A stretch of 64,000 bases of DNA from a virus (IMGVR_UViG_3300006750_000006:3446-67445), one strand, 5' to 3'; positions 9,401 through 64,000 are shown, numbered from the stretch's first letter. The notes: a model not told the origin generated them from the letters alone. Numbers and translations: made by a program.

Positions 9401-12400
9401 TCGACGAACTACAAAATGCCTTAGGTTCTATTGGCACTGTGGGAGATTTGCCACTTTCTGATGTGGGTGACTGGGCTAAAGATATTTTAAGTAATAATAA
9501 TCTCTCCCCAAGCCAAATTTGTGCTCTACTGAAAGGCAATGCCTCTAATTCAACATTAAAAGATTGTCTAGAAGCAACCAAATTAAACAATCCAGAAATG
9601 TATGAAAATGGCATTGAAAGTAGCGCAGAAATACGCACTTTATTTAGAACAATAGGCGAACATATTAACTTAGATATATGTGATGCAATTGGAACAACCC
9701 TACCTTCAGTTGCAGATGCTTGCGGTGTTTCATATAATTACGATGCTCGGTGTGCAGAACTTCAAATGGCCGGCCTAACAAAAGAAGAGTGTGATAAACA
9801 AATTAAAAAAGAACTGGAGGATTTAAAAAATAAAATACTTGCACTTTCTGGCTGGCTTTTTCCAAATTCGAATCCGCTAGACGGTATTTTATCAGATAAG
9901 TGCGGCCCCCAAGGGCTGTTTATTTTACCGCCGGCCATCAAAGATAGTATGGCATGGTTGACAGATGAAATATTAACTTATATAAAATATAGTTTACTTG
10001 AGGATTTACAATCACTTAAATTCTTTTCGCTACCTCCACGCGCTGTAATGGCAGCTGCGGATCCAGGTGAGATGGAGGCCGCAGCCCAAGCTATAACTGA
10101 TCAAGTTCAAGAAGAGCCATATCACGCTTTGGCCTTGGCTTATATTGGCGGAGGGGACCAAGACGGCAGTGGTGGTTATAAAACAGCTGAGAATGATTAT
10201 CACATGTGTTACAGTGCTACTCGTCATTACCTCCCTCGGGAGGCAGATCTAAAAGAGGAATTTGAAAGTTTTTCAGTTGGCAACGCCAACGGTCCAAAAG
10301 GCAAACCCGACTTGCGCGATCATAGGATGTTTGAACCGTTGGTATTTAATGATTTCGATCCTGGTAGCGGTTTTCAATTTAAAGAGCTGATGAACAACTT
10401 TTTTCCTAATGACGTTAAGGTGGAAATTAGAAAGATAGCTGTTGATCTTGGCCTCAGCGATTTTGAAAAGGATACAACAGATCTTACTGTTCTTGGCAAT
10501 GACACCGAAACATTATATAACACATGGCAGGAATGGAAAAGAGCTACGGAATTATTAGAACAACAGATGCAAGCCTTTATTGATAACGATCAAACTCTTT
10601 TAGACCAAATTGCCGAAGAGTTAGATACTGTAGGCGAAGTCGTCCTCGTCGCCGCCCAGGCTATACTGGCTTATTTTTACCCTGCTCCTTTGCTTGGCTT
10701 AATAGCTGATTTTTGGGCCGTAATAGAGGGAGGTTGGAATGATTTTCGAGCGGAGGTCGACCCCGCCTTCAAGCGCCGCCAGCAAGCTCGTGAAAAGAAT
10801 GAACGTATTAGGATTGCAGAAGAGGAAATGGTACCAAGAATTTCGGAAATGCAAGCCTTGACAACTGTTACAAGAATAGATTATGAAAATTCGGATGCAC
10901 AACTTGATATTGCAGAGGCAGATTATGAAACTTTAGTGAATCAGATTGGTGCTGAAATTAAAGTGCGCGTCAATAAGATGCCGATGCCGATGAATATAGA
11001 GAAGTTATTTTTTACAGCAAATCTGTTTTTACTTTGGACCGGATCCAACCGAGGCTTCCTTTTGGATGAAGAACATCAAGTCGCTTCCGAACGTTACGGT
11101 GGCTATGCACCCTTTGGCATAGATTATAGCGTGCTCTGGCCGGATCCATCTCCGGGAGATGCAGGAGCTGAATCAAATATGAACTTGGCGGCCACCAGGC
11201 CGTTCTCGCACATCCCCGACGCCCACGGTGATATGGTGATATATTACCCCTTGGATAGAAAATTACGAGATATACACGAGCTAAGGCCCACGTGGAGACA
11301 CATGCTAAGGATGTTTACTGGGGTAAAAGAACCAACAACTGTCTTCAATTGTACCGGCGAAGATGCTGTTTGTTCCTGGAACGTAAAGCCAGGCTCTTTA
11401 TCAACTAATTTAAGCCCGGGCATAAATTATTTGGCAAATTTAGCTGATGCCGATTCACAAGTAATTCCGAACGATATTATTGAAGCTTTTATGAACTTAA
11501 CTTTTGGCGAAGCTACAGGCTTGACAAGAAGAAGATTGAGGGCTATGTACCCTAAATTTGCTAGTTCAGATGCCATAGAAGGTGTGATTTGTCAAAAAAG
11601 TACTTATAAGTTTAAAGAACTAACAAATGTTTATCTTGATGTAACAATATTAGATGAAGAACTGGCAGTATCAATCATTGCAGAAGATCTCGATTCGTGG
11701 GTTGCTCCTGGCTACGAGGACTGGTCGTTGGCACTGCTCGTCTTCATGCAAGCCCTAGGCTGGTCAGATAAAAAAATCGCACGCAACAACGTCCTCCCCA
11801 CCGTTAAACTCGGCACCTGGCCACTAGCCTTGATGGATATACTTGTCGACGCCGGCGCCATAAGATATGAAACTAGAACCACATCGGTTGAATTTGATGA
11901 TGATTTGGGTAATTTTTTAGGCTATGCCCCGGTATTTGCAGTGTTCAAAAAATATGTTAGGGATCCTGACAACCCATGGGAGCAAGATGCAAAAGGCTTG
12001 GCTCATGCAACCAGCCTAGAGGGCAGAAAAGTAAATATAGAACTATATGATAGTTTAGTAGATAGTTCTATATTCCCGGAACTTTTTGATAGAAAGATTT
12101 CTTCTAATATAGCTGGGTCGATAGAAACAACCGCCATCATGATGGCCCCCGGCGGAACTTATTCAAACTTTAATCCAAATTATTTAAAATATGATCTTCC
12201 TTTTACTGAAATCATATCTTCTGATCAGAATGCTCGGAGACAAGTAGAAGAAGTACTTAATTTGTTTAAAAATTCAAGTAGTCAAGCAATCGCGACAGCT
12301 CTCGATGGTATACAATCTGTTAGTTTAAACAACATTTTATTATATCAAAATATGTTGGCGCCCCTAGAGAACACAAACGAAATTCAAAAGAACGGCCTAA

Positions 12401-15400
12401 AGGATGTTTCGAAGCTGATTAAAGGTAAAATTTCCCCTGATCACCCTCCGACATATAACGGGGCTATAGAGTCAGATTCTTGGGTCTCAGATGGAATTTA
12501 TAATTTTAATTTTCAAACTGGCTATGCTCCCGATATTCAAAATTTGTTGTCTGATATAGGATTAAATTCTTCAAACGATATTTCAGATTTGTTATCAGCT
12601 AATAAAATTGTTAACACGGTGGAGCATAATTCAAAGGCTGTGATATTTGGTCGACTTTTGACACATAAATTAAAAAAACTTTTAGAAAAATATCCCAATG
12701 AGGAGGATACAACATCTTCTGACGTGACAAAAGAAGAAGTTTTGAGACATGTTTCAAGAAATCTTTCTGACACAGGGTACGCGTCTCTGCAATTCGCATA
12801 TTCAAACCAAATGTTTGTTAAACTGAAAAATTCGAGATTGCATTATAGAAAGTTTTTAAGAAAATTATGGAAAAAAATACTTAAAAGTCCACTGGTCAGC
12901 CAAGATCTTAATTCAAAATGCCAGCAGACATTTAACTATATTACAAGTCCGGATAAAAAAACAGAAACAGATTTCTTTGACTTGGAAAAAGTTAAACCAA
13001 AGATAATGGACTTTTATGAAAATTCAGTCTGTCGCGACGTATATGATAAAGCGCCAGAGGGCCATAATGCAGTTAAAGATTCTTTAATCGGGGGTTGCAT
13101 ACTTCTATTGATAAAAGTATATACATTGGAAATGTGCCTGGCCAGCGTTATTAGTTGGGATAGTTTTGATATTGGCGATATTTTTAAAGATCGTGCCATG
13201 GTAAAGGTTGTTGTGGCAAACATTAAGCAAGATATAACAAATTTTGAAAAATTTACGGAATATTCTAATGATATTGTTAAAAAATTGGAAAATTTAGAAG
13301 ATTATGAATCTTATATGTTAGCAAGTCAGGCTAGCTCGATTGAATATCTTATAAAAAAAGAAAGTGAAGATATCTCTGCGACTATTAAATCATTGTTTCT
13401 CAATAGCAGCCCACTTAGTACGGATTTGGATTTAGATATAACACTATCTTCTGACGAAAAAGAACACTGGGATTCAGATGAGAAAATATTATATAAATTC
13501 ATGAAAGAAGCGGGCCATGAATACGTTGTTGACGCCAAGTTTACAAATAATATTTATACTATGAATTATGGTTGGGATATGAATTTGGTACCCGGTCGCT
13601 TTACTTCTCCCCAGAAGATGGAAAATGATATATATACCGGTCTTTGGGTGGCTAACAGCGGAATTGATTTGTTTGGTATGAGTAAATCAGATGTACAACA
13701 AAAATTACATCTTCATTCCCTGCCTATGACTTTTCATGAAAATGGGGAATTACATGCTGTTACATGGCCAAATAAGTGGGAAATATATGATCCATATAAC
13801 CCCAACGTTCCAACAAAAGAATATATAGATTATGCAAGTGATTATTATAATTCGGCGGAAAGAATAAACGAAGTTTCAAAACACAACCAAAATTGTTATG
13901 AGATGTTGTTTACAAACGAAATTAATTCTAAATTAGGCAATATCACATTTCAGCCTTACGTAAAAATTGTTGATACACAAACAAGCGATTTAGAGGGATT
14001 GGTGGCCAAAGATTATATTTTTGCAGAAACTCCATCCGGCGAGCCATGTGAAGACACCCCGCAAGCAACATCCCATACTATGTTAAAAGACTTACCTTTA
14101 CCATTCTTGGGTTACTATAGGAATGAGAACAATGTATTTGGATGTAAAATTTATGATTATGTGCCTTTGGATGTTTGGTCATATTTTTATACTCATGTGT
14201 TCTTGAAAAAAATCATGGATGTTCCAGAATATAAGATGATATATGAACAATATGGTATCAAACCATTTTTCAAGGAAATAAAATTTGGAATTCGCATGGT
14301 TTATTCCAGAAAGGACTATTCTATTGATATTGGTGATAAAATAAAAGAATTGGTCGGAAGCAACAATCTCAAGAAAGCTAAAGCAATTTATAATTTTAGA
14401 AGAGAAGTATCCACTACTCAGACTAAAACATATAAAACTCACCCATCTACAACTGCATCGCCGGGCCCGGATGTTGTACAAGCTGTTGTAACTGACGGAG
14501 AAGTGGTATATTTGAATCCGGATGTAAATCTTTCATCTGTCTGGGGCGCTGCAGCCGGCGGCCCCGAAGCAAAATTATGGTATGTTAAACAATTAGAAGA
14601 ATTATCTAAGTCTCACGAGGGTCAAAACTGGCCTTCGATAGTAAAAGAAACAACTGATGCTATTAATTTAGCACCAGAATTGCAAATACCTATTGTTGAA
14701 GTTGAAAGACATCTTGATTTTCATCATAATCCTCATGGTTTTTCAATAGGTGGTTTCTCTGGCGTAAGTCAAAATCGTCCTGGTAATTTTTTCTCATATG
14801 ACGAGTTGGGATATTTAGCCTCAGATCCCATGTATATTGGCTCTAATACTAGCGTTTCAGACCTACAATCAGATGCATATGCAGATACAATAAAAGGAGT
14901 AATCAATAATCCAGCCCAATTCTTTTATAAGAGAATTGCCAAAGATTTGCTTGCTGAATTAAAACAAACACCAGAATTTAGATTGATGTTTGAACATTTA
15001 TTTCCAATGCATAGATATATGTCTTTGGCTTTCCTATATTCTGGTGATGGCTTATCTAAGTTTATTCCTGAACCGACAGACGTTTTAGACGAAACAAAAG
15101 AAGCTATTCTTACCACAATTCAATCATTATTCGAATCTGATAATTTTGTATATGATTCTACTGTTGGGGAAAGTATGCTTGAGGCCTCACTGATGCGAGG
15201 TTCTCTCGGGACAAGAGGCAACTCACCTGACACAACAAAGATGTTGTTGAAGATAATTTTTATGACACCTTTGTTGATATTGAAAGGGCTGGTAGAGCTT
15301 ATAGATCCTGCTATTTCAATATCAAAGAAAATTATCGATCTTGCTGCAACCATTGCAGCTACGATTATTAGTGGAATAGAACAGGGTATTCGAGCTGCCA

Positions 15401-16053
15401 TAACTGTTGCGGAACAAGATAAAATATCTGCTGAATTTGCGGTCAGCCAAGCAGAAGTTAACGCACAAATTGCATCAGACCCTGCCAAGATTCAGTGGAA
15501 ATTAATTAGTCCAACTGATAGAGCAGCTGCTTATGGGAATACTACTTTAAATCTTGATGGTCCTATCAAGGGCTGGGAGTTTCCAAATGATGCTAGCGTT
15601 GAAGTCGACCCAGAGACCGGTGAACAAATTGCGCAACAGCAAGGTGATGTAGAGATTTCACAAGACTTCTTAAATGCGCTAGCTGATGTACAAGATAAAT
15701 ATAGTGAGTGGCAAGATGCAGGCCTTGAGGTGAGATCAGTTGATATTCTTCTTAATGGTGATCCCAATGATCCGAAGTCGATAGGCCTCAAGGGCGATCT
15801 AAATGAAACCTTAAAACAAGCTAAAGAGATTACTGATGCAGCTTTTAGCTCTCCCTACGCTCTCCCATCGTTGTGGGCTTCTTTGGTTCCCTCAACAATA
15901 CCATTTTTTGGTGGCTTATCCCCGATGGGAGGTCCACCCAGTACTATTCCTGGCATGATTTATCTTGCTTTATTGTTTTTAGATATGTACGAAGAAAAAC
16001 AACATGATGATGGTCAACTTAGTGAGGAAGAAGATTGTGATGAACAATTATAA
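6454..16053 (+). CDS. Giant (3199 aa) putative virion protein with several hydrophobic segments
   Basis: Uninterrupted 9.6 kb ORF between the spike and gp25 genes. Helical and Cys-containing, with several TM-like stretches. Function not recognisable. Confidence 0.6.
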   Translation: MASHIIKNLNKPNKSKKRSSPFLPVRYSPSENNPKLELGWDDENFLLINNEGKLVNPEKEDCDGIELPPEVEVEVIEIVNSLTGIWYGFVFTSNDVPTEKINSWTADETKVLYARPHYFEKTDSAPDILISNNLTKKEASDAESGLLEGAKLIAPDSNLNWKKLEKYDVRLAYYNFNKHNRKNIPEDLLIIDASTIEQNPTFRYSEGLYYFIAEDGKRKTAEELGVEGDAEESQETAKSEEAAVSAGSIKTEAFETLLRYLNKDISSSNHNVLIRTLLKNRYFVNVSEHVTTNSSNPKNQKILFAISANYIDGLPSSDLKYGSEFDPNHEDDAPFAKGRDYAFFIKLKDLRGQVDDLVESFEQIKSKVEEFRQSGGKIKNPNNIDFDVEQQIEALKEFPDIIDEFLERQADALVTNSDVISRAAAQGTNTDDDHIIQIGLKDNNVIGGNVRETISYILFSPDNKYLSNIDNISLYELDPWLTKEEASGAKESKRSGIDLRNGLNWLRSKFIGTQGTRTLHYLMAQKSIIGFNELASSDVKLNEWMKFLQNFSAPPFLIQLTRDKRREEEAGDYDCVELIEGFLEREKSGEPLTAKENNEQQKILKNPKCAEAWRKAKQKDTSSADSSLSKKGLLGTSKVVKGVSKSAGEQNLKLLYTGLLHNLDPQALLSLLMACIQSRLGIPLTAEALCEAAITKLIEDAGIQEFTNTIIEAFPELEVELGEAIVELKLTNTTVNEDGERADINFDGAPIAAALFSRDDDLDAANSVREMEQSGVSIDLTPGTFTDAATGGSKPYAEIDINAATRNFLELGFTEEETNALLVKDGYLEPSQVQYQSNSDNRIFSETEDSYDNSPYGKVQNAGKFVQYLKSRIGLHALCEGIVGPLLEMPGGFLSDPGGFIKQLRPPSLSIPKIALPDSLATEDMIGDFGDQLLSALLGMIASMLGQILGLLLEELISACFEEDTDLGRTGNSNNLTSVPIPFDELQNALGSIGTVGDLPLSDVGDWAKDILSNNNLSPSQICALLKGNASNSTLKDCLEATKLNNPEMYENGIESSAEIRTLFRTIGEHINLDICDAIGTTLPSVADACGVSYNYDARCAELQMAGLTKEECDKQIKKELEDLKNKILALSGWLFPNSNPLDGILSDKCGPQGLFILPPAIKDSMAWLTDEILTYIKYSLLEDLQSLKFFSLPPRAVMAAADPGEMEAAAQAITDQVQEEPYHALALAYIGGGDQDGSGGYKTAENDYHMCYSATRHYLPREADLKEEFESFSVGNANGPKGKPDLRDHRMFEPLVFNDFDPGSGFQFKELMNNFFPNDVKVEIRKIAVDLGLSDFEKDTTDLTVLGNDTETLYNTWQEWKRATELLEQQMQAFIDNDQTLLDQIAEELDTVGEVVLVAAQAILAYFYPAPLLGLIADFWAVIEGGWNDFRAEVDPAFKRRQQAREKNERIRIAEEEMVPRISEMQALTTVTRIDYENSDAQLDIAEADYETLVNQIGAEIKVRVNKMPMPMNIEKLFFTANLFLLWTGSNRGFLLDEEHQVASERYGGYAPFGIDYSVLWPDPSPGDAGAESNMNLAATRPFSHIPDAHGDMVIYYPLDRKLRDIHELRPTWRHMLRMFTGVKEPTTVFNCTGEDAVCSWNVKPGSLSTNLSPGINYLANLADADSQVIPNDIIEAFMNLTFGEATGLTRRRLRAMYPKFASSDAIEGVICQKSTYKFKELTNVYLDVTILDEELAVSIIAEDLDSWVAPGYEDWSLALLVFMQALGWSDKKIARNNVLPTVKLGTWPLALMDILVDAGAIRYETRTTSVEFDDDLGNFLGYAPVFAVFKKYVRDPDNPWEQDAKGLAHATSLEGRKVNIELYDSLVDSSIFPELFDRKISSNIAGSIETTAIMMAPGGTYSNFNPNYLKYDLPFTEIISSDQNARRQVEEVLNLFKNSSSQAIATALDGIQSVSLNNILLYQNMLAPLENTNEIQKNGLKDVSKLIKGKISPDHPPTYNGAIESDSWVSDGIYNFNFQTGYAPDIQNLLSDIGLNSSNDISDLLSANKIVNTVEHNSKAVIFGRLLTHKLKKLLEKYPNEEDTTSSDVTKEEVLRHVSRNLSDTGYASLQFAYSNQMFVKLKNSRLHYRKFLRKLWKKILKSPLVSQDLNSKCQQTFNYITSPDKKTETDFFDLEKVKPKIMDFYENSVCRDVYDKAPEGHNAVKDSLIGGCILLLIKVYTLEMCLASVISWDSFDIGDIFKDRAMVKVVVANIKQDITNFEKFTEYSNDIVKKLENLEDYESYMLASQASSIEYLIKKESEDISATIKSLFLNSSPLSTDLDLDITLSSDEKEHWDSDEKILYKFMKEAGHEYVVDAKFTNNIYTMNYGWDMNLVPGRFTSPQKMENDIYTGLWVANSGIDLFGMSKSDVQQKLHLHSLPMTFHENGELHAVTWPNKWEIYDPYNPNVPTKEYIDYASDYYNSAERINEVSKHNQNCYEMLFTNEINSKLGNITFQPYVKIVDTQTSDLEGLVAKDYIFAETPSGEPCEDTPQATSHTMLKDLPLPFLGYYRNENNVFGCKIYDYVPLDVWSYFYTHVFLKKIMDVPEYKMIYEQYGIKPFFKEIKFGIRMVYSRKDYSIDIGDKIKELVGSNNLKKAKAIYNFRREVSTTQTKTYKTHPSTTASPGPDVVQAVVTDGEVVYLNPDVNLSSVWGAAAGGPEAKLWYVKQLEELSKSHEGQNWPSIVKETTDAINLAPELQIPIVEVERHLDFHHNPHGFSIGGFSGVSQNRPGNFFSYDELGYLASDPMYIGSNTSVSDLQSDAYADTIKGVINNPAQFFYKRIAKDLLAELKQTPEFRLMFEHLFPMHRYMSLAFLYSGDGLSKFIPEPTDVLDETKEAILTTIQSLFESDNFVYDSTVGESMLEASLMRGSLGTRGNSPDTTKMLLKIIFMTPLLILKGLVELIDPAISISKKIIDLAATIAATIISGIEQGIRAAITVAEQDKISAEFAVSQAEVNAQIASDPAKIQWKLISPTDRAAAYGNTTLNLDGPIKGWEFPNDASVEVDPETGEQIAQQQGDVEISQDFLNALADVQDKYSEWQDAGLEVRSVDILLNGDPNDPKSIGLKGDLNETLKQAKEITDAAFSSPYALPSLWASLVPSTIPFFGGLSPMGGPPSTIPGMIYLALLFLDMYEEKQHDDGQLSEEEDCDEQL

Positions 16054-16069
16054 GTTTCATTTTGCGTTA

Positions 16070-16077
16070 CTATTTAT
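16070..16077 (+). promoter_or_regulatory. Putative late promoter motif CTATTTAT
   Basis: Intergenic, 26 nt before the gp25 start. The same motif recurs before other structural genes. Confidence 0.6.
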
Positions 16078-16103
16078 GTTAATAGATTGTAGGAATTTTT
16101 AAT

Positions 16104-16487: not shown

Positions 16488-16508
16488 AATTAATAGGAAA
16501 TATAAATA

Positions 16509-19807: not shown

Positions 19808-19830
19808 ATTACAAAGTTGGGATTGAAAAT

Positions 19831-22800
19831 ATGAGCATTAAGGATTTATTTGATAAGGGCCATTCGCTAAAGTTTCTTAAAAATAAATCCCAAGATGATT
19901 TAGCTAAAGATTTAGAATCTGCAAAATATATTGATGAATATTCAACTAGAAGAGATAGATTTTTTCCAGATGTTGATTTTGCAACTGCTTCTAACTTTGC
20001 TCGTTTTGGGTTGGCTGAACTTTACTATGAAAATTCTATTAAAAGAATTTATCAAACCTACCCATATGATGGTTCATTAACAGAAAAGATTGAATGGGAA
20101 AATGAAAGTACCTATTTAGATCTTTTTATGTTTGAGAATGAATATCCTCGAACTAATGGCCATATAATTATTAATGGTGCGACAAGTACTTATACTGCAA
20201 CTGAAGAAAGTAATATATATAGCAGTAGCCTCCCGCAGTATGTTCTTTTCCACGGCGGCCCTCATGCCGATGCATCGGGAGATTACAAAAATGATTTTTC
20301 TGCCGGCCCTTCAGGCCCAGGTGTAACAAAAGCCAACATATATGATGTGGGAACACAACAAACCAATAATCTTGAACTTGATCCTTCGAAGGGGGTAACT
20401 GTTGAGTTCTGGATGAAAAAAGATGGCTGGGCCTCGACTACTCTTCGAAAACAGGAATATCCTTTTAGTCTTGTTTCTGCTAACGGCGAGCATTTTTATT
20501 TAAGATATCATGGTCTAACAGCAACAGATAGAAGTAGATTCTATTTTCGAATTGAATCTGGTTCTGTGAGCGATACTGCTTTACTTGAAACGGGCCTATC
20601 GGATATTGCGGATGGTAATTGGCATCATTATACATTTACATTCAAGACGTACGGCTCTGTGAATAAAGTGAATTTTTATGTTGATGGGATTCATAAAGAA
20701 ACTACGACACTTACCGTTGGATTGGTAACCGGTACTTTTGGTGGAACCCTTTCGGCTTCACTTGGCGCCTTGGCCGGCCCTGTTGGATCTAGTGCGGCAC
20801 AGGGCTGGGGCAATGTAGTATCCTGCTCTTTCGATGAATTTAGATACTGGAAAACAGAAAGAGATGCACAACAAATTGGAAGATATTATAGAACTCAAAT
20901 TGGTGGTGGAACAAACACTGATAACGATAAATATGATAATGTAACAAACAAAGTAGATCTTGGCGTCTATTTTAAATTTAATGAGGGTATAGTAGGAAAT
21001 ACTTCTACTGACTCTGCAGTATTGGATTATTCTGGAAGAATTTCTAATGGTAATTTCGTAAATTATAGTTCTGAATGCAGATCCACTGGATCAGCAATGG
21101 TTTTATCAACTGCTGCTGATTATGAATTTGAAGATCCAATTGTTTATTCAGATCATCCAGATGTAGTATCACTATTAAGTAACAAGATGGATGTTGGGTC
21201 AATGCACGATCATCTGAATGTTGCTTCCATATATAAATCAGTACCCGGGTGGATCCTAGAAGAAGATGAATCTGAATCTAGCCATTTAAAGTTTTTAACA
21301 CAAATTATTGCTAGCTACTTTGATAATTTATATTTGCAAATGGAGAGCCTCCCGAGATTAAAAGATATAAATTATCCTTATGACAACAACTATGAAAAGC
21401 CCCTGCCTTTTGCTGATTATTTACTTGGTACACGCGGCCTTGAAACTCCAGAATTGTTCGCCGATGCTTCCATATTGGCAAAATATCTTCAAAGAGGAGA
21501 AAAAAAGCTTTATGAACAGAAACTTTATGAAGTAAAAAATACAATATACCAAAATATATATAATAATTTATCATATATACAAAAATCAAAAGGTACCATA
21601 AAGTCTTTAAGAAATTTTCTTAGATGTTATGGAATAGATGAAGAATTAATTAAAATAAATATTTATGCGGCTAATGACACATATGAATTAAAAGAAAATA
21701 CTTCGCATGCTTCTGTAAAGAAGAAATATCTTGATTTCGATGATTTAGAAACAAGATTCGCCAGTACTGGATTGTATGATAACTCATATACTGCGACTGC
21801 TTATCAGTATTATGACTCGATAGACTCTAATTCAATATCTTATATTCCTGGGGTTTCTGCTTCTTTTATGTCTGGCGCCTCAATGACTTTGGAAGCAGAA
21901 GTAATCTTCCCTAAAAGATTTTTATCTGGTGATGACAACTACCAGTTGTTTCCCTCTTTAACTTCTTCTATCGCGGGCCTCCACGCCGCAGTAGCTGACA
22001 ACGAAGATTTAACATACGCCACAGATAATACAATTAATTTTAATTTTGTTGTAAACAAAGGAAACAATGACAGGAGAAATGCTAGTTTTGCTCTAGTGAG
22101 TGACGGTTTGTTGCCAATATTATCTACGTTGGAAACAGAAACTTTCATGGGTATATATGACAATGAAAAATGGAATTTAGCATTTAGATTAAGACCAACA
22201 AAGCATCCTATTGCTAACTTAGTTGATGGCAGCCTAGAAGAAGCTAGCACTGCTTATACTTATGAGTTTTATGGTGTCAATTACCTATCAAATATATTAC
22301 AGAATGAATTCTCTTTGAGTGGTACGATGAGCCTATCCGATGCAGAAAAATTCTTCACACAACCAAAAAGAATTTATGCTGGTGCAACGAGAGAAAATTT
22401 TACAGGAAGTGTTTCTAGACATTCAGACGTAAAAGTTTCATCTGTAAAATTCTGGTTTGATTATCTGCCCAATGAAACAATTCGTGCTCATGGGAAAGAT
22501 GCTAGTATATATGGCCCACTACACCCCTATAAAAATAGTAATTTTGCGTCCAGTCATACAGAATTATTCGATGATTTTATTCCGCAAATAGAAACTTTGG
22601 CTCTAAATTGGACACTTGACAGCGTAACCGGCTCAAACCCTTCGGGACAATTTTTAATTGAAGATTTTGCTTCAGGCTCAACCTCTGACCGCAATATATC
22701 TAGACATGGCTGGGTTAGTGATGTCGCCAAATATAATTACACCGGCCGAGGAGACTTTTTTATTGGCGACTCTGATTACGCTGATCAAGCAGTCGACGTT

Positions 22801-25800
22801 GAATTTGTGCACACGGCCAAACAAAAGCTTCCAGAAATTATTAATAGCGATGATTTTGTTAAAATATTAACACAACAAGATGAAGTAGTATTTACTCGGG
22901 ATACAACCTATATTCAGCATCTTGTTTCTATTGAAAAGAGTATGTATCAGATTATTTCAGAAGAAATGCTGAGATTTTTTGCTACAATTGTTGATTTCAA
23001 CAACCTTATAGGCGATCCTGTTAATCGTTATCGACCAAATTACAAGCGCATGGAAAAATTGCGAGAATTGTTTTTTGAAAAAGTAGAAAATGAGCCAGAT
23101 TTAGATAAATTTATTGAATATTACAAGTGGGTAGATGATGCCGTCACAATGATGATCGCACAATTAATGCCGGCATCATCTAATTCTGTAGAGCTTCTTA
23201 GAAACATGGTTGAGAGCCATGTTTTGGAAAGAAACAAATATTGGACGAAATTTCCAACTCTAGATTCAGAAGTCAAAGATCCAATTTCTTCTTTGGTCGG
23301 TATTAATAAACTTTTATATAATTGGAAAATTGGACATGCCCCCCTGCCCTCCTCGCCGCTTTCACAGACAAAAAATCATCTTTGGTGGAAGGATAGAGCA
23401 GAAAGAGATATTGCAGAAATATCTTCAAGTGCACCAGGCGTAAATGATAATAAAAATTTATTATTGGAAAGGGTTACCACTGAAATAGTCACTTCTGGTC
23501 CTACATTAAAAACAATTGGCAACGCTAAATACGAAGTTTCTTCGTATATTCCGCGACGCCTTGCAAAACCTGTTCATTTGGATAAAGAACTTTCACTCAA
23601 GCTTAAAGGCGGCTCAAATCCAAAATATAATAATCGTCATGATTACTACAAAGGCGTTATTAAGTGGGGAAGCGATGATGACTTCATTTATTTAGATCTT
23701 GATAACGAAATATTAGAACAAGTTATTGAAGATGAAATAACACCAAATGAATTAAATAAAAAGCAATTTAGAGTAAAAGCGCTAACAATGCCGGCAAATG
23801 AAACTATGAATTCAAATGCACTTGGCGCAGGTTTAAATGATTTAAAATATTCTGATGCAAAAAGCACTTTATTATTACCATTTAATATATATTCATCGTC
23901 TGTCGATACAGGGTATCAAACTTTATATTCTAATCAATTTAAACTTGATTTTACTAACATACACGATGATAAATACGGTTATAATGCAGAAATACCAATG
24001 CAGGGTCCATTTGCTGAAAAGTATGTTGGGGGCATGCAACATCGCCATATCGAATTAAACAGAGGCACTGATGGCCAATTAACAAGAGCAGAAGGGTGGC
24101 ATTTACAGGAATTTTTAGATCAAACATCGACTGATATTCTTTTTACGGAAGATTTTGGAAATGCAACATCGGTCGGTACCACTGATGTTAAAATACTTGA
24201 TTTGCCACTAGGCTCTACTCTTGGTGATCCGAGCCCATATGAATATTGGAAAAATGGCGTGGGAGCAGACAACTCATGGACATTTTTATCTGGCCCCACC
24301 CCGTCAGTGGGTACTGGTCCTGATGCCGGGTTGGACGCTGGTTATGCTTATTGTGAAGTTTTACCATCTAAAGTAGGACAGACTTTTGCGTTGGTTACTC
24401 CCTTGGTTGACTTGCTGGACGTCCAACCCGATGCCCGGGTAGTATTTGCTTTTTATTATCATATGTATGGCTTGCATATAGGTAATTTAAAGGTTCAAAT
24501 ATCAGGTGATCCGACATTTCAAACAAATGTTGAAGATGTTCCGATGCTCTGGGACCTTTTAGGTTCACCCTTTATATCGACCTACATTGCAGGCCAACAA
24601 CAAACCAGCCCTTCAGATTCGTTTAGATATGCCTTTACTGCCTCTAATTTTATAGTTGAATATCTTAATAAATATTTAGGAACTCGTTTTTATATTAGAT
24701 TCTTATATACTGCCGGCATTACTCATTTGGGCGACTGCGCTATTGATAGAGTTTCAATTCAAGTTAACGAGACTGGAAACCAGCGTAATTCGTTTAAGCT
24801 TCTTAATCCAACCTACGATAACCACCATAGACCAAGCGCAATATATACCCGCCAAGAATTTGCAAAACGTCCTGTAAACATTCGCAATATTCACATGACA
24901 GGCTCTTCGCCGACAACAGCAGGTAATTATTTAGATAGATATGAATATGTTAGCACCACTAGTCCAGAAGCAAATGATCCTTGGTTTATTAAACATGCAG
25001 ATGAAATTACGTCGACAACAGCAGAAATTTTAGGTATTGGCACTGGCAGTATTGAGGAAATATTAACTATAACTCCTGGTACAATTAGAACTGAATTAAA
25101 ACGCCTTGACTATAATTGTCTTAATAAAGATTATCTAACTGGTTCTATAAAAAATAGAACGAGATTCAAAAATAGATTCAGCTCCCTAGGTGGTTTTGAA
25201 ATTATGTCACGAGGGTTCTTGGATCCTGCTCATGAAACTTATTCTGTCTACAATGCGATGCCATGGCGAAATAACTGGGGCAGAAAAGTATATAATACGC
25301 AACTTCAAGCACATATGGGCCAATTTGGTGTTAGCGTCCACGGTCCAAGTACTGATTTTGCGAGGGTACATGGTTCAGAAACAGTAGGCTCTATCAACGC
25401 ACTTGATTATACAATTACTGGCGATGCATCAAAACACAAAGTGCACAGAAATAATATTGAGAGGCCATATCTCGTTGTTTCTAGCTCTGTTCCCATGGTT
25501 GGAGATACTGCTGTCTCACTCAACGGCATAGCGCAATGTTATGTTATCGATGATGACCCTTCTCTTTCTTTTGGAAATGGGGTTGTTGATTCTCCATTTT
25601 CTCTAAGCGCATGGATTAAAGCAGATCTCACTTCCGAATTTGCGATTTTCAGCAAAGGATCCGACCCCACATGGGAATACACGTTCTATGTTTCCGCCGG
25701 CACCGACAGTCTTTATTTTATTGTCACCTCTGGCGGCACCTCGACCGAGTGGGTGGGTCAGTCGACGATTGCCAGTCTAAATAGTCATATTTGGTATCAT

Positions 25801-48400: not shown

Positions 48401-48626
48401 TCTGTTAAATGTTACAACCCTACCAAAGGGTGATATATTTATTCTGGATGAGCCAGGTACAGCACTAGACGCTGAAAACATGGAAGGGTTTGTTCGAATT
48501 CTTGAAATGATAAAAATCCAGTTCAAGACAGTATTGTTAATCTCTCATTTGGATAATTTAAAAGATGTCGTTGACCAGCAGCTGCTTATTGAAAAAATAG
48601 ATGGTTTTGCGTATGTAAATGAATAA
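45468..48626 (+). CDS. Fused SbcD/Mre11 nuclease - SbcC/Rad50 ATPase (T4 gp47-gp46-like)
   Basis: Phosphoesterase motifs DTH, GDIAH, GNHD and GDIH. Walker A GKNFSGKS, long coiled coil, signature GSGAEK, Walker B ILDEPGTALD, H-loop LISH. The true start may be the ATG at 45471. Confidence 0.92.
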   Translation: MMKFAHIADTHIRNLKYHKEYRVVFDRLYKSLRQQSVDYIIHCGDIAHTKTQLSPEFVDMCSGFLKNLADIAPTYIILGNHDGNLRNSSRQDALTPIIQALNHKNLFLLKDSGETQLNDEFTLNVLSVFDRKNWQPPVNSDKINIALYHGSISGVKTDTGWKMENGENDINIFGNFDYGFLGDIHKTNQTIDKKGKIRYPGSMIQQNHGETNDKGFLIWDIEDKDSFTCDHHVLKNPKPFLTIKLTPKGRFPNKLKVQKGARIRLVSENNLPIGVVRKAVDAAKSRFKPGSVTYLNRAAGERKNIEEFTDLLKQEDLRDIAVQEELISEYLVDYQPEEDILKKIYEVNKKYNAVAEREEEVQRNINWKLKKLEWSNLFNYGEDNSIDFGNLNGIVGVLGKNFSGKSSIIDSLLYTVYNATSKNNRKTINLINQDKETCRGYVEIDVGSKTYKIERTSTKYKKKLKGKETLEARTDIEFTVTDNIARTTHSLNGITRVETDKNIRKIFGTIEDFLMTSMASQLDSLAFINEGSTRRKEILAKFLDLELFDRKFKMIREDSADLKGALRRLSDRDYDQELKETREDLARSETELSLKNRKFSELEENIGQKSGDLETTSDQINSIPAEIIDIRNIKKQIKKSQEELDSLLEDNKGKQGELECEKKFLKKIENFVDNFDVTSFTDKKQIVEEHKRKILQIEKDLSQHEKEKQVNDRKIEYLKKIPCSHAARARCLFVKDARTAIDDTARVKISANQMSLNRKTLTKKIEDLNPNKIDEYLEKYQLISVKRSEQKNKITQLELDYERNKTKILRLQANLKTLSAKEQEYEENKETIENLENLLVKKDDLFENLRKLENAHKKDKLKLMELYKSNGILEQKFNEIDKQRQDFYDLENEFTMADLFMRCMHPNGISYDIIKRRLPVINDEISKILTNIVDFEVFFENDEKKLDISIKHPKHDPRPIEMGSGAEKTIAAMAIRLALLNVTTLPKGDIFILDEPGTALDAENMEGFVRILEMIKIQFKTVLLISHLDNLKDVVDQQLLIEKIDGFAYVNE

Positions 48627-48630
48627 AAAA

Positions 48631-48638
48631 CTATTTAT
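48631..48638 (+). promoter_or_regulatory. Putative late promoter motif CTATTTAT
   Basis: Intergenic, directly before an AGGAGG RBS and the lysis/packaging/head gene run. Confidence 0.6.
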
Positions 48639-48654
48639 TTAACAGGAGGTCAGA

Positions 48655-48852
48655 ATGATGACAGCAGTAAGAGCATGGTTAGATAAACATTTAGAAAGAT
48701 TTATATCCCGTAAATTTTTAGCATGGGGTACAGCAACTTATTTGGTTGCAAGTAATTCACTAACAAGTGAAGATTGGGTTGCAGTTACTTTGGCTTATAT
48801 TGGTTCTGAAGCACTTGTTGATATTGCAGCTCGCTGGAAACACGGAAGTTGA
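48655..48852 (+). CDS. Small membrane protein, holin-like
   Basis: 65 aa with an SRKFL motif and two hydrophobic segments. Tandem Met-Met start. AGGAGG RBS. Confidence 0.5.
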   Translation: MMTAVRAWLDKHLERFISRKFLAWGTATYLVASNSLTSEDWVAVTLAYIGSEALVDIAARWKHGS

Positions 48853-49258: not shown

Positions 49259-49261
49259 TTT

Positions 49262-50638: not shown

Positions 50639-50639
50639 C

Positions 50640-60211: not shown

Positions 60212-60228
60212 ATCTAATTATATGTTAG
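60212..60228 (+). promoter_or_regulatory. Putative late promoter ATCTAATTATATGTTAG (copy 2)
   Basis: Identical to 26365-26381. Intergenic, before a GGGAG RBS. Confidence 0.65.
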
Positions 60229-60242
60229 TGGGAGAATATTAA

Positions 60243-62300
60243 ATGCCATCACAAACAGGACAATTAGCATTTTTAGGAGCAGCAAGATTCCAAGGTCTTT
60301 GGAATGCAGGCACAAATGCGGCAACAGGATCTGATTTAGATGGGGCCCCAAGCGGCCCATACAGCAATCTTTTTACAGCTGGTGCTTCTGTTAACGGTGG
60401 TTACCATTCTTCAACCAATTTGACTGCTTCTGCTGGTGATTATTGGCAAATAACAGGATCCGGAGCGCATAATGTTGATGGTCAAACTGATTGGGACTTA
60501 AATGATTGGGTTATATTTTCTGGCTCTGCTGGAAATCCTGGATGGATAAAACTAGCTTTTGAAGATACAATAGCTTCAATTGTTGTGGGCGATTTATCTT
60601 CAAGTTCTTTCCATATGGGCGAAGCAAATGATAAACACGTTATTTTTGCATCTGGTTCCGTTCATAGTGGGTCTGACAACTTTACATATGATTATAATAC
60701 AAATATACTTTATAGTCCAATCATTTCTGGCTCTTCAAATGGCATTGTATTATCAGGTTCAAATATTACTATGGCATCCGGCCCGGGCCAAGATGCAGTT
60801 TTGACCCTCAAAGCTGATGATGGCCAAGATGCAAATGACACAGCGACAATAACACTATATGACGGCGGTACATTATACACACAAGCAGAGGCTGTTTGGT
60901 TTGCACCGCAGACTTATTTTTCTGCTATAGCTCCAAGCTACGCGAATATCACGGCGGCCGGCTCCGGCGGTATCAACCTCGAAGCGATCCAAGGTCGTGT
61001 TCATGTGACAGCTTCAACTGGCATGTATGTAACAGGAAATGCTGTATTCAGAGACGATGTACAAATTGATGGTGTGTTACACGCTACTACTATTACTGGC
61101 TCTGGCGGATCGAATCTTGATTTGTTATCAGATGCAGATATGGTGTTAGTATCGAATGATGGAATATATTTAAAATACGGTAACGATGGCGCCGGAAATT
61201 TGCGCATACACGGTGGAGACGGCAGTGAAAAGGTTAGAGTTGATACTGTTGGCAATGTTGGCATCGGAACAACAGCACCATCTCATACACTATCTGTCAC
61301 GGGTACTATGGCAGTTTCTGGGAATGCTGTATTCCATAACGATGTACAGATCAATGGAACCCTTACAGGCGGCAGCCCACTAGTTGTTAGCGGGGGGTTG
61401 AATTTAACAGGCAGCCTAAATGTATCAGGTTCCGCATCTATTTACTATGATGCTACTGCTCTTCCGGCATATCGATATTTAATTATTTCAGGTTCTCATG
61501 TTCCTGGTGTCCCTTCTGGTGGGGGTGTAGTTATATCTGGTTCAAATATCATTCAGACTGCTAGCACCAGTATTACACTAAATTCTGATGCTAATATTAA
61601 TTTAAATGCTGCTGGCAATATTCTTATTGGCGCTGGAACAGATGGCACTATTCAATTTAATGCCGGCAACTCTTCTGCTTTGATGAATTTTGATGAGCCA
61701 GCAGCAGGCTACCATCCCAGCGGATCAATAAAAATTAATGATAATATAAAATTATATTTTGGAACTTATCCCGCCGGCCCTGAAAGCTACGTAACTGGTG
61801 GTTATATAGAATACAATGCAGATGGTGATCAATATATGGTCATTTCTGGTTCTCATAATGGCATTGTTCTAACAGGTTCTACTATTGTTATTGATGGTAC
61901 CCTCACCGGCGGCAGCCCACTAATTGTTAGCGGAGGGATGAATTTAACAGGCAGTGTTAATATCACTGGAAGTCTTTTTGTTAACGGTGTCTCAATATCT
62001 GGAAGTGGCGGAGGTGGCTCTGGAACTCCCGGCGGTTCAGACACACAAGTTCAATATAACGATTCTGGTGCTTTCACAGGAAGCGCTAATTTAACATTTG
62101 ATGGTTCAAGCTTGGTTGCAACCGGATCAGTAGAAGCAACTTCATTCTTTACAACCCATGCTGGTTTCTTGAATCCAGTAACTTTCAGCACATCAATTGT
62201 TGTTCCCGACGATCACAATGGTGGTCTTTACGGACCATTGGTTTTTAGTGGTGGTAATGATTTAACCATTGGAACTGGCTCCACTATGAGAATATTTTAA
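60243..62300 (+). CDS. Tail fibre protein (Gly/Ser/Thr-rich, internal repeats)
   Basis: FQGLWNA..GDYWQI..DWVIFSG N-terminal module, GNVGIGTTAPSHTLSVTG fibre motif, and repeated TGS/SGS strands. Confidence 0.7.
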   Translation: MPSQTGQLAFLGAARFQGLWNAGTNAATGSDLDGAPSGPYSNLFTAGASVNGGYHSSTNLTASAGDYWQITGSGAHNVDGQTDWDLNDWVIFSGSAGNPGWIKLAFEDTIASIVVGDLSSSSFHMGEANDKHVIFASGSVHSGSDNFTYDYNTNILYSPIISGSSNGIVLSGSNITMASGPGQDAVLTLKADDGQDANDTATITLYDGGTLYTQAEAVWFAPQTYFSAIAPSYANITAAGSGGINLEAIQGRVHVTASTGMYVTGNAVFRDDVQIDGVLHATTITGSGGSNLDLLSDADMVLVSNDGIYLKYGNDGAGNLRIHGGDGSEKVRVDTVGNVGIGTTAPSHTLSVTGTMAVSGNAVFHNDVQINGTLTGGSPLVVSGGLNLTGSLNVSGSASIYYDATALPAYRYLIISGSHVPGVPSGGGVVISGSNIIQTASTSITLNSDANINLNAAGNILIGAGTDGTIQFNAGNSSALMNFDEPAAGYHPSGSIKINDNIKLYFGTYPAGPESYVTGGYIEYNADGDQYMVISGSHNGIVLTGSTIVIDGTLTGGSPLIVSGGMNLTGSVNITGSLFVNGVSISGSGGGGSGTPGGSDTQVQYNDSGAFTGSANLTFDGSSLVATGSVEATSFFTTHAGFLNPVTFSTSIVVPDDHNGGLYGPLVFSGGNDLTIGTGSTMRIF
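61354..61954 (+). repeat. Imperfect 61-bp direct repeat (61354-61414 and 61894-61954) inside the fibre gene
   Basis: Copies are exactly 540 nt apart with 6 mismatches by my count, encoding GTLTGGSPL(V/I)VSGG(L/M)NLTGS. Confidence 0.85.
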
Positions 62301-62315
62301 AAAAGGAAAATACTT

Positions 62316-63164
62316 ATGAGTACACTATACGTAAATAACATATCACCCCAATCTGGGTCTGAAATCACAATGACAAACACTTTGGTCATGCCCACGCTTC
62401 CAGAAAAGATATCTTTTGAATCAGGCGCCGAAGTATGGGGAACCATCACGGCCCTGTCTCAGTCTGAAGGCCAAGGCTTGTTAATCGGAGGGGACGATAT
62501 TGTCACGCTAACAGGCTCAATGGTGGCAGTCGACGCGCAACTGATTCCTTACCAAGATATTAATATGAATAATTGGGGACTACAAAAAGTAGCAGGTATT
62601 ACCGGGTTAAATACTACGGGGTCGATTGGCATAACGGGCTCTGTGGAAATTTCCGGTAGTCTAACTCTTAACGGTGACTCAATTACCGCCGGCGGCGGAG
62701 GTGGAGGAGATTCAACTCAGGACTTTACCGGCGTTGACCCATATGGTTTCACATCTAATGGCGATATGTCAGGTGACATTATTAAAATTGGAAGCACCAC
62801 AACTGTATTATCTAATCTTTGTTATCTAACCGATTCTTCTGTATGGACCCTCGCTGACGCATCGGATGTAACTGCCTCTGGGCCTGTGTTGCTAGGCCTA
62901 GCTGTCGGAACAAATTCCGGAACAGATGGGATGTTAACTCGTGGATATGCAAGAATATCAGCAGCTCTTTTGGCCGGCACCGCCACCACAAAACAGGGAG
63001 ATCCTGTATATGTGAGCACAACTGCTGGCGCACTAACATTTACTGCCCCCTCAGCATCAGGTGACACTGTCCGAATTGTTGGTTATCTTGCAAGTCCGGT
63101 CAATACCAATACAGATTCTGTTGTTCTTTTCAATCCAGATTCAACTTATGTTGAAATAATTTAG
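62316..63164 (+). CDS. Fibre/adaptor protein with a C-terminal domain paralogous to the 57828 ORF
   Basis: Starts MSTLYVNNISPQSG. Ends LLGLAVGT..DGMLTRG..APSASGDTVRIVGY..FNPDSTYVEI. Confidence 0.65.
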   Translation: MSTLYVNNISPQSGSEITMTNTLVMPTLPEKISFESGAEVWGTITALSQSEGQGLLIGGDDIVTLTGSMVAVDAQLIPYQDINMNNWGLQKVAGITGLNTTGSIGITGSVEISGSLTLNGDSITAGGGGGGDSTQDFTGVDPYGFTSNGDMSGDIIKIGSTTTVLSNLCYLTDSSVWTLADASDVTASGPVLLGLAVGTNSGTDGMLTRGYARISAALLAGTATTKQGDPVYVSTTAGALTFTAPSASGDTVRIVGYLASPVNTNTDSVVLFNPDSTYVEII

Positions 63165-63178
63165 GAGACTGATTATTA

Positions 63179-64000
63179 ATGGCAACACTTTATGTAAGCA
63201 AAGCAGGCAATGACTCTAATGATGGCTCAACACCAGTATTAGCAAAGCTTACAATTGGCGCTGCTTTAACAGCGGCTTCCAACAACTGGACTGTTATAAT
63301 TGGAGAAGGTACGTACAATGAAAAGATATCAACTTCGCTCACTGGTGTCACCATACAAGGTGCGACTGGCTATCCGGAGGATGTTGTAATTCAGTCGGCA
63401 ATAGAAGGTAGAACTGTTACAATTAATACTGATTGTGTTTTGAAGAATTTTACAGTACTACACCAGCCTCCTGGGGAAGCTGATAGCGCTAACGACTGGG
63501 ATAATGCCACTTTTGCAGTCGGCGCTGCTAGCGGCAAGATAGTATACCATATCGATAATTGTTATGTTCTTTCATCCAGAGGCGCTATACAAAATTTGGC
63601 TGTTGGCGCGACGATTAATCGTGCACGCATTGAATATATTGGTAGTGGATCTGCACCAACACCGACGGCCGAATGGCCTACCTGTCCTCCTGGTACTGCT
63701 GCGACCACTGCGGTTGTTGGCACTTATGGTCCCGGGTCGGGCAACGAAAGCGATGCTGTGTGGACTAGTTGTTTATTTATGAATATGCCCGCCCACGACA
63801 CCTATCGCAGCGGCGGATTTGTAAATTGTACAATTGCATCTCATAATAATTCCGATCCCAACAAGCGCGGATTGTATGCCAATGGCGGCGTAGTCAATAC
63901 AGTTGTTTTCTATGATACAGCCTCTGCGGCTACCTTGGTTGCTGCCGGTTGTACCACGAGTTACACAGCACACCGCGCCGGTATGGCGATTTATAACGAG
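63179..64000 (+). CDS. Partial right-handed beta-helix (pectin-lyase-like) protein, possible depolymerase/tailspike; truncated by the window end
   Basis: Not in the ORF track. AGGAG RBS at 63163-63167. Translated by hand as MATLYVSKAGNDSNDGS..TIGAALTAA..TVIIGEGTYNE and open to 64000. Confidence 0.7.
   Translation, partial: MATLYVSKAGNDSNDGSTPVLAKLTIGAALTAASNNWTVIIGEGTYNEKISTSLTGVTIQGATGYPEDVVIQSAIEGRTVTINTDCVLKNFTVLHQPPGEADSANDWDNATFAVGAASGKIVYHIDNCYVLSSRGAIQNLAVGATINRARIEYIGSGSAPTPTAEWPTCPPGTAATTAVVGTYGPGSGNESDAVWTSCLFMNMPAHDTYRSGGFVNCTIASHNNSDPNKRGLYANGGVVNTVVFYDTASAATLVAAGCTTSYTAHRAGMAIYNE

Follow-up and report, generated by a model that had tools for sequence, protein, structure and literature searches.

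Clusters of AT-to-GC changes ('biased clustered substitutions') are the classic trace left by GC-biased gene conversion (gBGC), a process described in mammals and proposed for bacteria. In bacteriophage T4, mismatches in heteroduplexes are corrected in very short patches by endonuclease VII, and quasipalindrome mutations occur as well. A case among marine phages concerns the psbA and psbD genes of the cyanomyoviruses, for which Sullivan et al. (2006; PMC1484495), citing Zeidner et al. (2005), describe a patchy %G+C in 30-nt windows and attribute it to intragenic recombination with GC-richer copies. Cyanobacteria over-represent the iterated palindrome HIP1 (GCGATCGC), and some of them do the same with the 'alternate HIPs' GGCGCC and rCCGGy, GCCGGC being one form of the latter; Elhai (2015; PMC4390886) gives a HIP density of 1000 to 2000 per Mb and suggests a methylation-directed ratchet of biased repair, of which the over-representation is perhaps a by-product rather than a function. 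Substitution clusters together with perfect inverted repeats are made by short-range template switching, according to PMC7954356, PMC8794818 and PMC9435742. Here, we describe short runs of GC-rich, mostly C-ending codons (patches) and an excess of GC-rich palindromes in IMGVR_UViG_3300006750_000006:3446-67445, a stretch of 64,000 nucleotides of AT-rich viral DNA that is called the window throughout.

An earlier note, made from the sequence alone, had taken the patches to be confined to the loops of virion adhesion domains and had proposed that a targeted diversification system might write them. The observation is real, strong and clade-specific, and it reveals no new diversity-generating machine. 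Our leading though tentative reading is that the patches are the footprint of genome-wide, GC-favouring conversion or repair of very short tracts, filtered by selection on the proteins, a mechanism that is unproven. The window comes from a linear uncultured-virus record of 67.4 kb (G000), derived from a metagenome and estimated to be 37% complete, in which all gene-like open reading frames (ORFs) of at least 100 aa lie on the + strand. Its portal protein is about 41-43% identical to the portals of Microcystis phage Mel-JY01 and Flavobacterium phage immuto, which marks the phage, a marine one, as a distant T4-like myovirus. Among the matches listed, it occurs in 24 runs from many marine metagenomes, and 11 of these 24 hold half or more of the sampled words.

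The clustering of GC-ending codons goes well beyond what amino-acid composition and codon usage provide; a loss of significance under such a control, which the earlier note had named as refuting its idea, is not what is seen. When synonymous codons were shuffled within each of 37 ORFs (300 shuffles, with the proteins and the codon usage of each gene kept), 36.0 ± 9.6 8-codon windows had at least seven codons with G or C at the third position (GC3), with a maximum of 67 in any shuffle, as against 206 in the real sequence. For 8-codon windows with at least six C-ending codons (C3), 12.6 ± 5.4 were expected and 108 found. Six ORFs, one of them an SbcC-like gene, reached p = 0.000 for their window count in the 300 shuffles. 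Shuffles that in addition preserved one or two following bases, or the GC state of flanking non-synonymous bases, raised the expectation to 40-58 at most, and context-dependent codon bias was thus rejected as the cause. With identical ORF calling, the count for the window was 204 vs 33.6 expected, whereas 50 kb of T4 gave 9 vs 6.0 and 50 kb of immuto 4 vs 2.8. The stated preference for C over G is also borne out: at four-fold sites, patches have 230 C and 86 G (2.7:1), as compared with 1467 C and 935 G elsewhere, a background of 1.6:1.

The patches are short. Autocorrelation of the GC3 residuals starts at 0.11 (lag 1), drops to 0.03 (lags 2-3) and is about zero beyond 5 codons; since it is gone beyond about 5 codons, GC heterogeneity on the scale of protein domains was discarded as an explanation. 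In a two-state hidden Markov model (HMM), GC3 is 0.84 in the patch state and 0.21 outside, and the mean patch measures 2.5 codons with a tail to 23, while segment scoring finds patch runs of up to 33 codons. By both the HMM and the autocorrelation, the tracts comprise mostly 2-5 codons. A dispersed repeat family was considered and rejected, as no GC-rich k-mer of 11-12 nt exists in more than 2-3 copies and the recurring items are short palindromic cores. Lag-1 autocorrelation amounts to 0.07-0.11 in the window and in seven related records (G001, L005, L008, L068, L082, L124 and L133), is at most 0.05 in 11 more distant relatives and is about zero in T4 and immuto. Patch clustering is a trait of a clade of marine T4-like phages and not of AT-rich phages generally.

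Within the window, a threshold scan yielded 116 patches in most ORFs. Genes for replication, recombination and packaging are among the more than 30 that carry them, and their density is higher in the large, fast-evolving structural ORFs. The HMM patch state covers 4-13% of the codons in the terminase, the portal and most small ORFs and reaches its maximum of 20% in ORF 58659-60200. Confinement to virion adhesion loops is therefore not upheld: patches also lie in the genes for an SbcC-like nuclease subunit (45468-48626, + strand; PHROGs E-value 3e-47), the large terminase (50640-52223, +; 2e-54) and the T4-type portal (52227-54215, +; 8e-75), and in most other ORFs.

Comparison with relatives revealed that the patches are lineage-specific and often neutral for the encoded residue. 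The closest long relative, G001 (a 103.5-kb record), is collinear with the window over about 15.8-57.4 kb at about 71-80% DNA identity. Twenty-three ORF pairs were aligned codon by codon, covering 12,945 window codons; two mispaired small ORFs were dropped, and the G001 record stops short of a patch group at 10639-11859, which the comparison excludes. In 157 of 343 patch codons (46%), the residue is the same in G001. At same-residue patch codons (n = 148), the window has a GC3 of 0.84 and G001 one of 0.38, as compared with 0.26 and 0.24 outside patches. For instance, the eight residues YLNRAAGE of the SbcC-like protein (46347-46370, +) are encoded by TAC TTG AAC CGC GCC GCC GGG GAG in the window and by TAT TTA AAT AGA GCA GCT GGC GAA in G001. 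The same holds for RRLSDRDY in the SbcC-like gene and for PTLSTGGR in the large terminase patch at 51150-51194 (+), where G001 has the identical peptide with AT-ending codons.

G001 in turn has patches of its own at other places (31 8-codon windows vs 12.3 shuffled; for the window, 53 vs 19.0). The SbcC-like protein, used as query, retrieved 34 loci from viral contigs and 80 more from metagenomes. At the 35 SbcC patch columns of the window, GC3 in the closest relatives is 0.26, vs 0.27-0.28 elsewhere, and no rise is seen in any of 18 relatives, so the patches are not conserved.

Patches are nevertheless enriched where the two phages differ. Of the patch codons, 38% have a different residue in G001 and 16% face a gap, as against 25% and 3% elsewhere; taken together, 186 of 343 patch codons (54%) are changed or gapped vs 3513 of 12,602 others (28%), an odds ratio of 3.1 (p 1e-23) that rises to 6.4 for gaps alone. 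Insertions relative to G001 that bear patches are located at 28232-28312, 38619-38660 and 29435-29557. This enrichment is the kernel of truth behind the 'hypervariable loops' of the earlier note. Where residues differ, GC at the first two codon positions (GC12) is 0.58 in the window and 0.45 in G001. Proline (1.85-fold), glycine (1.64-fold), alanine (1.62-fold) and arginine (1.38-fold) are enriched in patches; Ile, Lys, Asn and Tyr are reduced to 0.4-0.6-fold, Glu is also depleted, and so are the loop formers Asn, Asp and Ser. The residues that rise have GC-rich codons and those that fall AT-rich ones; the shift follows the GC content of the codons and not structural class or loop propensity. 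Two structure predictions were both of low confidence: a model of the 513-aa protein encoded by ORF 58659-60200, based on a 25-row alignment, reached a predicted local distance difference test score (pLDDT) of 44.9 and is usable for residues ~20-170, where two patches span strand and coil; the C-terminal Laminin_G_3 region of ORF 19831-26358, folded alone, reached a pLDDT of 31.6.

Changes between near-identical strains are clustered as well. Over 47050-48622, the window and the metagenome contig L128 agree at 96.9%, a figure that drops to only 88% further on. Near ~48350, inside the 3′ end of the SbcC-like gene, an identity of about 99% gives way to one of about 87% over a few hundred bases, which looks like a recent recombination breakpoint. 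The first 1301 nt of the compared stretch contain 16 differences. Eight of these fall into two groups of four, each group within 17 nt (P 0.01 for the maximum and 0.0008 for how many cluster starts there are). One group, at 47300-47306 (+), consists of four synonymous differences in 7 nt, three of the four AT-to-GC, which create a new GC3 pair and constitute a new micro-patch in the SbcC-like gene: the window reads GGA GAC CTG and L128 GGC GAT TTA, with GAT TTA kept in G001 too. The other falls inside an existing patch at 47637-47663 (+), which contains the palindrome GCGGGCCCGC and lies in a variable loop between two conserved Cys. Near-identical strains differ by multi-base events. An untemplated burst would hit non-synonymous sites two times out of three; all-synonymous clusters therefore suggest templated exchange or stepwise fixation under a local bias.

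Another SbcC patch, of 13 codons (47151-47189, +), includes the 10-nt palindrome AGGGCGCCCT and differs from G001 in one residue. Here, the more distant relative L065, which has part of the patch, matches the window in 31 of 39 nt and G001 in only 25, although G001 is closer in the flanks and L065 is more distant overall. This discordance points to exchange, or else to G001 having lost the patch. L128 carries the same patch letter for letter. Contigs of other runs (Logan) were aligned to the window at 80% likeness; among the matches listed, X7 and X9 span the SbcC patches, the former with 8 mismatched positions over 2072 nt and the latter with 11 over 1437 nt. Changes assigned to the window lineage comprise 178 A>G, 150 T>C, 40 A>C and 19 T>G.

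The second feature of this DNA is a window-wide excess of perfect palindromes, spelt out by the choice among synonymous codons. GCCGGC is present 45 times, 38 of them in one frame, vs 11.5-12.0 expected from the synonymous shuffle, and GGCGCC (28 vs 9.6-10.1), GTCGAC (20-21 vs 5.0) and CCCGGG (15 vs 4-4.5) follow suit; all four belong to the top eight when hexamers are ranked against that shuffle. The 64 palindromic hexamers have a mean z of 1.34, as compared with −0.04 for the rest (Mann-Whitney p 2e-9). Among hexamers made of G and C only, palindromes occur at 2.76-fold and non-palindromes at 1.66-fold expectation, and among GNC-GNC codon pairs the four palindromic ones stand at 3.43-fold (79 vs 23.1) and the twelve others at 1.29-fold. 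For minimum lengths of 6, 8, 10 and 12 nt, the window has 1403, 500, about 152 and 46 perfect palindromes, vs 1135, 324, 88 and 21 expected (z 9.4 to 5.0), and z is still 5.4 to 3.9 under a null model that keeps the third-position GC/AT pattern. Of the 152-155 palindromes in the window with at least 10 nt, 43 have at least 60% GC; long GC-rich examples are GGCTGCAGCTGCAGCC at 53687-53702 and GCGAGGGCCCTCGC at 30459-30472.

The excess in palindromic hexamers is 1.25-, 1.18- and 1.26-fold in the three frames (2.09-, 1.31- and 1.72-fold for GC-rich ones), i.e. it is a frame-independent property of the DNA. Inverted repeats are in 1.73-fold excess at spacer 0, in 1.2-1.3-fold excess at spacers of 2-10 nt and at expectation (1.0) beyond 11. 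Selection for hairpins was tried as a cause and rejected, as the excess at spacers of 2-10 nt is so much lower than at spacer 0. Many GCCGGC copies stand isolated in AT-rich surroundings and thus account for part of the two-codon micro-patches. When GCCGGC is extended symmetrically, 19 of 45 copies are palindromic 8-mers vs 26% expected, a weak effect (p 0.015). G001 retains 8 of 26 palindromic GC-ending in-frame codon pairs and 80 of 608 non-palindromic ones (p 0.019, in a small sample). Of the approximately 480 GC3-GC3 neighbour pairs in excess, some 65 are palindromic.

A palindrome excess is also present in G001, L005 (2-fold for GC-rich ones), L008 and L024, whereas palindromes are avoided in T4, immuto, L016, L023, L029 and L031. 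In L031, about 50 GC-rich palindromes would be expected and none exists; L031 and L105, both relatives at about 52% SbcC identity, lack any copy of eight GC-rich palindromic hexamers, an extreme purge opposite to the behaviour of the window's clade. In the window itself, GAGCTC and CTCGAG are absent (4.4 and 3.0 expected from a maximal-order Markov model), while other GC-containing palindromes are mostly in excess; the absence of these two words may reflect restriction avoidance. The complete 184-kb relative G006, which avoids palindromes, has a Dam-like MethyltransfD12 gene (L145, G006:19018-22731; E-value 4e-28). This gene was found only there and in none of the palindrome-rich partial records.

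How could such patches arise? The leading reading supposes a GC-favouring turnover of very short tracts, mostly 2-5 codons with a tail to about 30, that would act over the whole genome of this marine T4-like clade. In a population that recombines heavily, it would most likely take the form of micro gene conversion or of a biased mismatch correction in recombination heteroduplexes. The second option of the earlier note, short-patch recombination with GC-richer donors, survives here in weakened form, as a recombination-like turnover of short tracts with patches enriched in diverged and gapped segments and with no GC-richer donor found. In conserved segments, purifying selection would leave only synonymous AT-to-GC changes, giving runs of NNC and NNG codons with unchanged residues. 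In tolerant, fast-evolving virion segments, all codon positions as well as length could change, so that patches would accumulate there and seem to be directed at loops. The GC-rich palindromes would then come, as a second product, from that repair bias or from one linked to it, in the way proposed for the cyanobacterial iterated palindromes. We infer recombination or repair as the agent, a GC bias in it, and a cause shared by patches and palindromes. A bolder version seems rather unlikely to us: that the clade possesses an intrinsic, GC-biased very-short-patch activity, a ratchet that writes GC codon runs and palindromes along the entire chromosome and, as its tracts would be best tolerated in receptor-binding proteins, hastens the diversification of these as a side effect, which would make it the first gBGC-like drive described in a virus.

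Several results weigh against conversion or repair of this kind. By simple arithmetic, one fully GC-biased conversion between genomes with a GC3 of about 0.3 would raise it to no more than about 0.5; to reach 0.85-1.0 over 10-33 codons, repeated events at the same spot or unseen GC-rich donors are required. The highest GC3 among 113 SbcC homologues is 0.51, and none of 106 aligned relatives matches any of the five SbcC patches at 90% or more, the best matches reaching 0.52-0.83 over 18-39 nt. GAC CTG of the micro-patch at 47300-47306 is found in none of the 106. Simple GC-biased repair does not predict the 2.7:1 preponderance of C over G in patches. The apparent AT-to-GC excess is alike in the window and G001 lineages (387 vs 197 and 344 vs 196), and with AT-rich outgroups the direction of change is not securely polarised. 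Long patches are hardly richer in palindromes of at least 6 nt than the remainder (17% vs 15% of bases), and patch and palindrome signals are linked across 14 genomes by only a correlation (Spearman 0.52, p 0.054). Finally, no gene for Vsr or for a C5- or N4/N6-methyltransferase (PF00145, PF01555, PF02086) was found in the clade's records, which are 37-68% complete.

Plain mosaicism is a possible, though doubtful, alternative. By homologous or microhomology recombination, the short tracts would derive from unsampled relatives or other sources with uniformly GC-rich genes (about 65% GC, GC3 ~0.9), without any repair bias. In composition, the patches (GC3 0.84-0.92, GC12 0.58, C-ending) indeed resemble coding DNA equilibrated at high GC. 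They are enriched at indels and in diverged segments, some are insertions relative to G001, and one (47151-47189) is discordantly common to L065. A whole block at 57.8-64 kb is raised in GC (0.41-0.50) and can barely be aligned with G001. There is precedent in the patchy %G+C of marine T4-like phage genes, which Sullivan et al. (2006) read as intragenic recombination. The GC-richer donor itself does not appear, neither as a homologue above the GC3 given above nor as a near-identical source of the SbcC patches. Moreover, RRLSDRDY keeps the residues of the closest clade and yet differs at 10 synonymous sites, so that its donor would be close in protein and at the same time saturated in GC3, and no such lineage was seen. 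A typical tract of merely 2-5 codons is short for import. Nor does import account for the palindrome excess found under the null model that retains the GC/AT pattern.

Selection on the DNA or RNA words as such appears improbable. In this case, palindromes, and perhaps the longer GC runs, would serve as binding or modification sites or as a HIP1-like 'self' mark read along the chromosome, or the patches as clusters of rare codons at which ribosomes pause to allow folding. The frame independence of the palindrome excess and its peak at spacer 0 would suit such a role, as would the higher retention of palindromic pairs in G001. Sister lineages diverge sharply, from the empty L031 to the two-fold enriched L005, as if the words were being read. 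However, pause sites or fixed functional sites are at odds with the lack of conservation in patch position, GC3 being no higher at the patch columns in the 18 relatives. The excess concerns many different palindromes of 6-16 nt rather than one word, no cognate methyltransferase is present in the clade's partial records, and the higher retention of palindromes could equally stem from a repair ratchet that re-creates them.

A diversity-generating retroelement (DGR) or another targeted hypermutation system that rewrites virion loops in trans, as the earlier note had envisaged, is very improbable. NNC codons do resemble those of DGR variable regions, patch density is higher in structural ORFs that are large and evolve fast, as it is in stretches where G001 differs, and the differences between near-identical strains cluster in one patch. 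Four defining features contradict it in records that cover part of the genome. No match to reverse transcriptase (PF00078, RVT_1) was found in the 67.4-kb contig or in the records of five relatives, one of which is 100% complete. A self-BLAST of the contig for a template/variable repeat pair returned three imperfect repeats, none of them with adenine-specific mismatches. The AT-to-GC changes are not restricted to adenine, T>C being about as frequent as A>G, and they include A>C transversions. Lastly, no gene class is free of patches, which lie in the nuclease, terminase and portal genes too and are often residue-neutral, and those of G001 lie elsewhere. A chimeric assembly that mixes strains of unlike GC is scarcely credible, even though the record is an uncultured-virus metagenome contig and related strains co-occur in the same samples, because independent assemblies from other samples reproduce the patch stretches at more than 99% identity, L128 repeats one patch exactly, and contigs of relatives give like statistics.

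The individual patches named in the earlier note are present at the given places and in frame. In ORF 26396-32494, the patch VAEGGAG at 29435-29455 (+) has 19 G or C in 21 nt, with 6 C3 and one G-ending codon (G3) among its seven codons, and contains the overlapping palindromes GGCGCC, CGCCGGCG and GCCGGC; the framework behind it is AT-rich (4/21 GC). It is followed by a 25-codon patch at 29483-29557 (+; 14 C3 and 7 G3) that faces a gap in G001, and the entire segment 29435-29557 is without counterpart there. The patch at 29606-29635 (+), with 8 C3 in 10 codons, corresponds in G001 to AT-rich, partly different codons and a gap. Two patches at 25660-25767 (+) in the last Laminin_G_3 domain of ORF 19831-26358 include both loops cited before, 25693-25707 (5 C3 in 5 codons) and 25723-25749 (6 C3 and 2 G3 in 9), and differ from G001 in residues throughout. 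The densest patches, nine in number, occupy the 513-aa ORF at 58659-60200 (+), among them one of 33 codons at 59499-59597 (22 C3 and 7 G3). The stretch 59415-59588 of this ORF has 35 C3 and 8 G3 in 58 codons, and 59521-59580 has 42 G or C in 60 nt.

Thirteen further places had been named. Twelve hold a patch by the threshold, and the one near 28020 is weaker (28019-28051, 7 C3 in 11 codons). A group of at least ten patches at 10639-11859 (+) in ORF 6454-16053 takes in those cited as 10640, 10750, 11190 and 11700-11860 and ends in the stretch GTCGAC GCCGGC GCC (11845-11859, +). A Pro/Gly/Thr-rich patch of 15 codons at 26206-26250 (+) starts inside the 12-nt palindrome CGCTGGCCAGCG (26202-26213), and three patches at the start of ORF 26396-32494 span 26450-26689 (+; 26450-26482, 26609-26641 and 26657-26689). 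ORF 40105-41172 has four at 40444-40968 (+); parts of 40570-40626 and 40891-40929 are common to G001, and these two are therefore older. Patches of 18 codons in ORF 60243-62300 (60936-60989, +; cited as 60950) and of 10 codons in the last ORF (63785-63814, +; cited as 63790) complete the series.

Three giant ORFs precede the SbcC, terminase and portal genes. They encode 3199 aa (6454-16053, +), 2175 aa (19831-26358, +; Laminin_G_3, Pfam E-value 7e-31, in agreement with the LamG domain of the earlier note) and 2032 aa (26396-32494, +). The last has no family in Pfam, which leaves its label 'reelin-like' unconfirmed; it gave no match by blastn against 50,697 phage records, nor did its residues 802-1334 in a scan of viral contigs. 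A PHROG search assigned no family to the 513-aa protein, and tblastn against the same phage records found no match; its sole close homologue is 71% identical, and one distant viral locus is known besides. Residues 1053-1124 of the 3199-aa protein give a borderline match to Peptidase_C10 (25.9 bits, cut-off 26).

Judged by eye from their translations, ORFs in bases 1-3445 of contig G000, upstream of the window, and at window positions 1-420 resemble sulfotransferase-type proteins, a glycosyltransferase of the family-25 type and a protein like adenylylsulfate kinase, whose P-loop reads GLSGSGKTT. At the other end, the five ORFs of the GC-raised block, 57828-64000, also have high GC at codon positions 1 and 2; since the block is almost unalignable with the otherwise collinear G001, it is taken to be a swapped structural module. 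Directly after the SbcC-like gene (48626-48767), an insertion hot spot lies between conserved genes. G001 has two extra ORFs of 167 and 144 aa at this place (reverse strand, 34440-35375) and L128 about 1.3-2 kb of extra DNA (1574-2926), both without counterpart in the window.

If GC-favouring turnover of short tracts is indeed at work, codon usage and local GC of abundant marine phages would in part reflect recombination and repair rather than adaptation to the host or to translation. This would have consequences for host prediction from codon usage, for the detection of recombination and for selection tests on tail-fibre genes. The palindrome excess, moreover, runs opposite to the restriction avoidance expected of phages. 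A narrow literature search returned no report in phages of such patches, of such a palindrome excess or of gBGC.

The described systems resemble the window to different degrees. With DGRs, it shares NNC-rich codons in variable parts of phage proteins of the receptor-binding type; unlike in DGRs, patches extend beyond one C-terminal variable region, no reverse transcriptase is seen in the available records, and template repeat and adenine specificity are lacking. Short-range template switching would fit both the palindrome excess and clusters such as four changes in 7 nt, each by a single event, but it has no inherent GC bias or codon periodicity and could not alone give runs of 8-13 synonymous changes. 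As in gBGC, apparent AT-to-GC changes are clustered at all codon positions, independent of the protein, linked to exchange and lineage-specific. Clusters are seen in the window and G001 lineages alike, and a fresh one is AT-to-GC in three of four changes. The tracts measure tens of bases instead of kilobases, and with AT-rich outgroups their direction is insecurely polarised.

The psbA and psbD genes of cyanophages are similar in that AT-rich marine myoviruses show intragenic GC clumps (~30-nt windows), largest at third positions, and in that recombination with GC-richer partners has been proposed in both cases. They are two host-derived genes with known GC-rich donors, whereas the window has patches in more than 30 genes, core phage genes included, with tracts of mostly 2-5 codons, no donor among the 113 homologues and a palindrome excess alongside. 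The cyanobacterial HIPs share with the window GC-rich palindromes in coding sequence above codon-aware expectation, down to the identical words GGCGCC and GCCGGC. Frame independence is found in both, as is retention above codon level at orthologous places, here in the small sample given above, and for both a ratchet of biased repair rather than a site function has been proposed. In contrast to HIPs, the phage has many palindromes of 6-16 nt instead of one word, no cognate methyltransferase in the partial records of its clade, and densities of about 700 (GCCGGC) and 440 (GGCGCC) per Mb, below 1000-2000. As its words are shared with the unexplained 'alternate HIPs' of cyanobacteria, a small phage genome with many sequenced relatives may offer a tractable system in which to study how such words come about.

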